Of a DNA stretch of 29,932 bases, positions 19,488-19,641 are shown one piece after another. The position numbers and the translations under genes are program-made. This DNA comes from a virus (taxonomy: Duplodnaviria > Heunggongvirae > Uroviricota > Caudoviricetes). Location: positions 1-29,932 of IMG/VR virus record IMGVR_UViG_640753024_000007. One strand, written 5' to 3'. The notes below the pieces were generated by a model. The model was not told the origin of the DNA. It searched no databases and worked only from the letters and a program-made list of their open reading frames with translations. Numbering within the stretch: the stretch's first letter is position 1; every line of letters begins with the position of its first letter.

Positions 19488-19563
19488 GCCGACTTAGCTC
19501 AGTAGGTAGAGCAACTGACTTGTAATCAGTAGGTCACCAGTTCGATTCCGGTAGTCGGCACCA
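19488..19563 (+). tRNA. tRNA-Thr (anticodon UGU)
   Basis: Cloverleaf read manually: acceptor GCCGACT/AGTCGGC, anticodon stem ACTGA/TCAGT with loop CTTGTAA, TTCGATT T-loop, encoded CCA. Confidence 0.85.
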
Positions 19564-19566
19564 TAT

Positions 19567-19641
19567 GCGGGTATCGTATAATGGCTATTACCTCAGCCTT
19601 CCAAGCTGATGATGCGGGTTCGATTCCCGCTACCCGCTCCA
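19567..19641 (+). tRNA. tRNA-Gly (anticodon UCC)
   Basis: Acceptor GCGGGTA/TACCCGC, anticodon stem TCAGC/GCTGA with loop CTTCCAA, TTCGATT T-loop, 3' TCCA; near-identical to host glyT as I recall it, with a compensatory acceptor-stem change. Confidence 0.85.

Follow-up and report, generated by a model that had tools for sequence, protein, structure and literature searches.

A tRNA-Thr(UGU)-tRNA-Gly(UCC) cassette between Q and the lysis genes of a defective lambdoid prophage

ARAGORN predicted exactly two tRNA genes in the window (the whole 29.9-kb stretch of viral DNA analysed here, 29,932 nucleotides), both on the + strand and together forming a compact cassette at 19488-19641 (Table 1). The two genes were also recovered with the Rfam tRNA model RF00005, with scores of 73.8 bits for tRNA-Thr (E 1e-14) and 65.6 bits for tRNA-Gly (E 2e-12) against a gathering score of 29, and all four cloverleaf stems are visible in the alignments of both genes to this model. 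The anticodons called by ARAGORN are unambiguous, tgt for Thr and tcc for Gly, each read from position 34 of a 7-nt loop. An initial annotation of this DNA had proposed a prophage-borne tRNA-Thr(UGU) and tRNA-Gly(UCC) pair, folded as canonical cloverleaves and lying 3 nt apart. The anticodons, the stems and the TAT spacer all agree with that description.

Table 1 Features of the tRNA cassette and its surroundings in the window.
Feature	Position	Strand	Evidence or remark
Antiterminator Q	15363..16058	+	Pfam PF06323, E 4e-84
Strong terminator after Q	16105-16126		
DNA methyltransferase, directly upstream of cassette	18275..19321	+	Pfam N6_N4_Mtase E 2e-45; PADLOC MTase_II E 2e-154
Candidate sigma-70-like promoter, TTGAAA-16 nt-TAATAT, lying ~60 nt before tRNA-Thr	19402..19429	+	Consensus scan 9/12
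tRNA-Thr(UGU) gene, CCA encoded	19488..19563	+	ARAGORN (tgt); Rfam RF00005; 76/76 identical to thrU
Spacer TAT, 3 nt, signature junction of the phage cassette	19564..19566	+	
tRNA-Gly(UCC) gene, CCA encoded	19567..19641	+	ARAGORN (tcc); RF00005; identical to glyT except U6:A67
Conserved non-coding trailer, inherited with the tRNA pair	19642..19994	+	In register in 64/121 loci listed, 75-83% identity
Intrinsic terminator, 7-bp GC-rich stem then T run, closing the tRNA module	19995..20023	+	
Truncated holin ORF, lysis side of the slot	20768..21172	+	Pfam Phage_holin_8, N-terminal part only

Both genes closely resemble host genes, as had been proposed at the outset. Alignment with E. coli K-12 MG1655 showed that the Thr gene is identical to thrU over its full length, and that only two substitutions, C6->U and G66->A (gene numbering), set the Gly gene apart from glyT; the two sites make up pair 6:67. 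Since they pair with each other, the switch of this acceptor-stem pair from C:G to U:A is compensatory, in line with the claim made from the sequence at first reading. The identity elements of tRNA-Gly are G1:C72, C2:G71, G3:C70, U73 and the UCC anticodon, and pair 6:67 is not among them; all of these elements can be read in the window gene, and the synthetase identity elements of both tRNAs are intact.

The arrangement of the pair is not that of the host. In MG1655, the region compared with the window runs thrU-8 nt-tyrU-116 nt-glyT-6 nt-thrT-tufB, in agreement with the initial annotation, which had tyrU separating thrU from glyT. Both tyrU and thrT are absent from the cassette, in which the Thr-Gly gap is 3 nt, and no similarity to the host thrU operon was found in the cassette's 5' leader or 3' trailer. 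The pair does not correspond to the chromosomal thrU-tyrU-glyT-thrT-tufB operon. Under an origin by deletion of tyrU, TAT could be composed of T, the first base of the thrU-tyrU spacer, and the AT that precedes glyT, although 4 of the 64 possible trinucleotides would fit such an origin.

The element that carries the cassette is a lambdoid prophage adjoining ompW, and its prophage nature is backed by genes for integrase, excisionase, Q, holin, gpW and portal. Its early genes are ordered integrase, excisionase and exonuclease, then repressor and cro, replication genes, hok/sok, rusA and Q. Downstream of Q lie a terminator, a Ser/Thr kinase, a PP2C phosphatase, a small ORF, a DNA methyltransferase and the two tRNAs, and a stretch of ~1.1 kb without credible ORFs separates the tRNAs from the truncated holin. 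Q, the cassette and the holin fragment thus follow one another on one strand. We ruled out an integration-site remnant, as the tRNAs are internal to the prophage and ~19 kb from its integrase end. For the Pas sRNAs, tRNA matches near prophage sRNA genes were described as integration-site remnants (bioRxiv 10.64898/2026.05.13.724894); in contrast, the tRNAs at the loci studied here are internal cargo located between Q and the lysis genes.

Of the relatives, the one nearest to the window is a prophage of E. coli DS26-1, with 99.8% identity at the tRNA locus and 99.5% over the cassette segment. Compared with DS26-1, the window lacks 5.4 kb (the rest of the holin, the lysis genes and terminase; junction at window position 20980) and a further 3.1 kb that extends from the portal C-terminus to the capsid N-terminus. 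These two losses indicate that the prophage is defective. It is a deletion derivative of the DS26-1 prophage, and fused gene fragments remain at 20979-23555.

Other cargo and small RNAs were detected elsewhere in the prophage. The AT-rich segment immediately after the Q terminator (16140-17707) encodes the Ser/Thr kinase and the PP2C phosphatase, and the kinase matches the PADLOC models PD-T4-6, mad6 and Stk2 (E 1e-28 to 3e-40). Given that DS26-1 has other genes at this site, the two genes can be regarded as a swappable candidate anti-phage kinase module. No tRNA-targeting defence gene was found in the window, where PADLOC reported only the PD-T4-6/Stk2-like kinase and the methyltransferase. 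On the - strand, a pair of ORFs that overlap and encode 184 and 310 aa (11071-12554; GC 32-36%) had no Pfam or PADLOC match, and their sole matches, both full-length, were to the PHROGs of unknown function phrog_15250 and phrog_15676; the counterpart of the larger ORF in DS26-1 is interrupted by IS1. At 12811-12986, 4987-5175 and 29245-29328, Rfam recognised sok antitoxin RNA with 120 bits, a pair of C4 antisense RNAs scoring 80 and 58 bits, and isrK with 66 bits. Of the C4 copies, the second adjoins an ORF6N/Rha-like ORF at the end of the window (29372-29932, - strand), which hints at either another immunity-like region or a neighbouring element.

Inspection of the sequences flanking the tRNA genes revealed a possible transcription unit. 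In nine distinct upstream sequences the two hexamers of the sigma-70-like element never vary, while their spacer has diverged, and this element may act as the promoter of the cassette. The late promoter pR' was not located with confidence in the window. Read-through from the late operon is also likely, given that the cassette follows Q and shares its strand and that phage HK446 has the layout pR'-tRNAs-holin. Downstream of the tRNAs, indels in the conserved trailer are mostly of single bases, which indicates that it is non-coding. The strong terminator that follows has an invariant stem and a variable loop across relatives, and homology among the cassette loci stops there. Possible identities for the trailer (~350 nt) are a prophage sRNA of the PasD/STnc100 kind and a tRNA 3'-trailer RNA. 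An STnc100 identity for the downstream RNA was dropped, as the match in its 3' half (19836-20025) scored 23.7 bits, below the gathering score of 47, and no Rfam family reached its gathering threshold in the trailer of 12 related loci.

To profile the distribution of the cassette, we searched IMG/VR with a pattern across the Thr-Gly junction, and complete E. coli genomes with a 63-nt junction query (coverage ≥80%). The pattern retrieved at least 120 contigs from IMG/VR; the spacer was TAT in nearly all of these loci, the exceptions being TAAT (three loci) and TGT (one). The junction was present in 876 of 5,426 complete E. coli genomes (~16%). Among representative genomes it was also detected in Shigella flexneri (three copies, one of them an Ile2-like-Arg-Thr-Gly array), E. 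ruysiae, Citrobacter braakii and Enterobacter hormaechei. In Photobacterium sagamiensis the cassette sits inside a Ser(tga)-Thr-Gly-Asn array (L134, 575-950). A further copy was found on a 423-bp, low-coverage contig of the assembly of the myxobacterium Corallococcus exercitus (L137), and is probably contamination.

The tRNA array architectures, counted with ARAGORN among the loci listed, were dominated by Thr-Gly alone (60 loci), 'Met(cat)'-Lys(ttt)-Thr-Gly (~42 loci) and 'Met(cat)'-Arg(tct)-Thr-Gly (18 loci), and the few remaining loci had rare other architectures. Both ARAGORN and GenBank label the first tRNA of the longer arrays Met(cat). This tRNA is identical at 68-69 of 76 positions to ileX and at 53-54 of 78 positions to metT (L125, 2850-2925; L129, 7472-7547), and its greater closeness to ileX indicates that it is probably of the Ile2 type that reads AUA. 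For the second tRNA of the longer arrays, a single scaffold (64/77 identity) bears anticodons for Arg, Lys, Leu or Phe. Anticodon changes were also seen in thrU-like genes: phage SerU-LTIIb has one with a TCT (Arg) anticodon (L123, 1122-1197) plus a normal second Thr-Gly copy, and two IMG/VR loci (L072, L116) have one switched to TTT (Lys). In the annotated phages 683R6, PhiR47_1, SerU-LTIIb and JLK-2012, the cassette is always located between Q (or a methylase) and the holin. Among the loci listed, homology to the window shrinks to the tRNA pair, and Q, the cargo and the lysis genes differ.

The tRNA genes are far better conserved than the DNA next to them. In 27 loci that share the trailer, the mean identity of the tRNA pair (154 bp) is 99.3%, compared with 80.4% for the adjoining trailer, a comparison subject to the caveat that the search pattern fixed 31 of the 154 positions. 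The U6:A67 allele of the Gly gene was found in 54 of 132 copies listed, and most others have the host-like C:G. Positions 6 and 66 (gene numbering) are C:G or U:A, with U:G wobble intermediates in four of the copies listed, and positions 48 and 64 are G:C or A:U, again with a wobble intermediate. Common polymorphisms of the Thr gene fall in the D-loop (U16C and U20C). Changes that break a pair are rare singletons among the copies listed, and neither gene of the window carries a disruptive mutation. This pattern suggests that the tRNA pair is under purifying selection, and gene conversion with the host copies could account for part of the high conservation.

The codon usage of the window genes (7,764 codons) was compared with that of a host sample of only 42 annotated MG1655 genes (14,748 codons). 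ACA and GGA, the codons for which enrichment had been suggested as a check on the initial annotation, were both enriched: ACA occurs at 16.5 versus 5.4 per 1000 codons (2.9-fold, rank 4 of 61), and GGA at 14.7 versus 6.0 per 1000 (2.3-fold, rank 8 of 61). For two codons drawn at random, a rank sum no greater than 12 has a probability of 0.016. The three most enriched codons are AGG, ATA and AGA, and TCA, CGG and AGT are enriched to the level of GGA, yet have no matching tRNA in the cassette. The longer arrays (Ile2, Arg(UCU), Thr and Gly) cover ATA, AGA, ACA and GGA, which rank 2, 3, 4 and 8. In the late genes of DS26-1 the enrichment was 2.7-fold for ACG, 2.3-fold for GGG, 1.8-fold for ACA and 1.6-fold for GGA, and tRNAs with U34 also decode G-ending codons. 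Such enrichment is general to AT-rich acquired DNA and amounts to a correlation, not to proof of causation.

Taken together, the initial interpretation of the locus is supported. Judged from their sequences, the two genes appear to be intact elongator tRNA genes and phage-borne copies of thrU and glyT, and we think it probable that the cassette supplements the dosage of two minor tRNAs that are each encoded by a single host gene. Transcription would start from the conserved sigma-70-like promoter of the cassette and, on induction, would also include Q-modified read-through. By analogy with tRNA processing in E. coli, RNase P and 3' exonucleases would then free both tRNAs from the 3-nt spacer. 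Charging would be by the host ThrRS and GlyRS, as expected for a Thr tRNA identical to thrU and a Gly tRNA changed only at a non-identity pair. The outcome would be a greater supply of single-gene, low-abundance tRNAs reading ACA (plus ACG/ACU) and GGA (plus GGG), a role supported by the two- to three-fold over-use of ACA and GGA in the prophage. A benefit to the phage cannot operate at the window locus, where the prophage is defective. Because much of the late region has been lost, the present benefit, if any, would go to the host and its other acquired genes, and a benefit of this kind fits the 'selective retention' put forward by McDonald et al. 2015.

An alternative is that the cassette is a neutral passenger, a relic in a decaying prophage with no present function for phage or host. 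The lysis and head genes missing by comparison with DS26-1 (5.4 kb and 3.1 kb) favour such a reading. In addition, the intact relative is 99.5% identical over the cassette segment, so mutations may not yet have had time to build up since the decay. Against a relic, both genes are free of disruptive mutations. The family-wide difference between tRNAs and flanks, accompanied by compensatory changes, is harder to reconcile with neutrality, and McDonald et al. argue that hosts selectively retain such copies (PMC4539685). We consider a neutral passenger unlikely.

The cassette could instead replace host tRNAs that are destroyed by abortive-infection tRNA nucleases, chief among them P2 Old. This protein, classically known for excluding phage lambda, is a tRNase that excises the anticodon arm of the host tRNA-Thr(UGU) and thereby blocks lambdoid phages (PMC12445682; bioRxiv 10.64898/2026.07.10.737580). 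Both tRNAs of the cassette are targets: tRNA-ThrU(UGU) is the primary lethal target of P2-OLD (PMC12445682), and tRNA-seq places tRNA-Gly(UCC) in a group of five tRNAs with a more than 2-fold depletion (bioRxiv 10.64898/2026.07.10.737580). Infection is rescued by the Thr(UGU) tRNAs of two lambdoid phages, 21 and HK446, and the one from HK446 occupies the Q-to-holin slot. Resistance to Old requires both an altered CNG motif and a shortened anticodon stem (PMC12445682; bioRxiv 10.64898/2026.07.10.737580). Changes of the type G42C/U+U43C, which remove pairs 27:43 and 28:42 and alter CAG, match these published features and occur in 5 of 134 cassette copies listed, plus phage JLK-2012. The 3' strand of the anticodon stem, usually TCAGT, reads TCACC in three of the copies (L014, L029 and L119) and TCATC in two (L009 and L031); in JLK-2012 the change is carried by the gene at 2495-2570 (L139).

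The window allele has none of these changes. Its Thr gene shares the UGU anticodon with the rescue tRNAs, but it is identical to thrU throughout, so that the CUG/CAG motif and all 5 bp of the anticodon stem are present: the arm ACTGA/TCAGT is that of the host, with the CNG pseudo-palindrome unaltered, and the A27:U43 pair is kept, so that the stem is not shortened. The anticodon arm of the Gly gene is likewise identical to that of the host, and an Old-sensitive Thr arm is present in 125 of 134 cassette copies listed. Over-expressed E. coli thrU gave little or no protection in both studies, and both report that the tRNAs are not competitive inhibitors (PMC12445682; bioRxiv 10.64898/2026.07.10.737580). 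As the window allele lacks the defining features of rescue tRNAs, the case for counter-defence is weak for this locus, and we regard this explanation as quite unlikely. In a broader form, lambdoid phages would keep Thr(UGU) and Gly(UCC) chiefly because these are the preferred victims of P2-Old-type nucleases; the window allele would then represent the naive, sensitive state, with help limited to dosage from the late promoter, and escape alleles would arise repeatedly. This too seems improbable to us. The alleles at positions 42 and 43 among relatives form a natural series for weighing supply against counter-defence.

It is very improbable that the near-invariant 154 bp are kept mainly as a homology patch for exchange between lambdoid early and late modules, or with the host thrU-glyT locus: although homology across at least 120 loci shrinks to the tRNA pair, with different Q, cargo and lysis genes around it, and the chimeric Thr gene of JLK-2012 (nt 1-25 as in the HK446 Thr gene, nt 26-76 thrU-like) shows that crossover within the gene occurs, such exchange would be a by-product that leaves the tRNA structure, the compensatory substitutions and the intact anticodons unexplained, and it is compatible with codon supply rather than an alternative to it.

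The supplementation of minor tRNAs that we favour has a clear precedent. Extra copies of glyT, argO and thrU were reported together in Shigella, flanked by phage genes, along with enrichment of ACA, GGA and AGA in mobile elements, and selective retention of phage-delivered tRNA genes was proposed (McDonald et al. 2015, BMC Evol Biol, PMC4539685). The window resembles these Shigella and E. coli copies in its genes, their linkage, the phage flanks and the codon argument, and differs in being a minimal two-tRNA form without argO. Its Gly gene is the U6:A67 allele, whereas the glyT copies in that study were reported to be identical, and the Q-to-lysis slot, the TAT junction and the allele spectrum were not described there. 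The Ile2-type tRNA hidden under the Met(cat) label may explain the ATA enrichment that was observed by McDonald et al. 2015 without extra tRNA-ATA copies.

Several other phage tRNA systems share part of this arrangement. The window and the Shiga-toxin phages are alike in using a post-Q slot in a lambdoid phage and in their rare-codon rationale, and differ in that the window has Thr and Gly tRNAs, no toxin gene, and a non-coding trailer and terminator instead. The phages of that group, 933W for example, reportedly carry ileZ-argN-argO upstream of stx. Their tRNA genes occupy a slot downstream of Q, and the rare codons concerned are AUA, AGA and AGG; the ileX-like first tRNA of the longer cassette arrays is a further point of likeness. 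OLD-resistant rescue tRNA-Thr(UGU) genes are known from phage 21, HK446, T4 and Bas32 (PMC12445682; bioRxiv 10.64898/2026.07.10.737580); the window gene has the UGU anticodon in common with them, but keeps the host CNG motif and the full stem. The HK446 Thr gene is only 50/76 identical to that of the window and thrU, but is located in the same slot between pR' and holin. In the HK446 genome (NC_019714; L138, 35097-35252), tRNA-Asn(gtt) and tRNA-Thr(tgt) genes lie unannotated between the annotated pR' and the holin. The T4-type tRNA cluster includes Thr-UGU and Gly-UCC (also Ser, Pro, Leu and others), with ~85% identity over the two genes and very short inter-tRNA spacers, as in the window. T4-type phages, however, are virulent and have larger arrays with sequences diverged from those of the host, and their Thr and Gly genes are not adjacent, the matches falling in two pieces ~340 bp apart.

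Against this background, the feature in the window is an ordinary, already described phage-borne tRNA cassette: its genes are annotated in hundreds of genomes, and phage-delivered copies of thrU and glyT that match acquired DNA rich in ACA and GGA were published in 2015. What the present comparison adds is descriptive, namely the fixed TAT junction, the Q-to-lysis slot and the occurrence in ~16% of complete E. coli genomes, and the finding that nearly all copies listed have the P2-Old-sensitive thrU arm and few have changes at the resistance positions.
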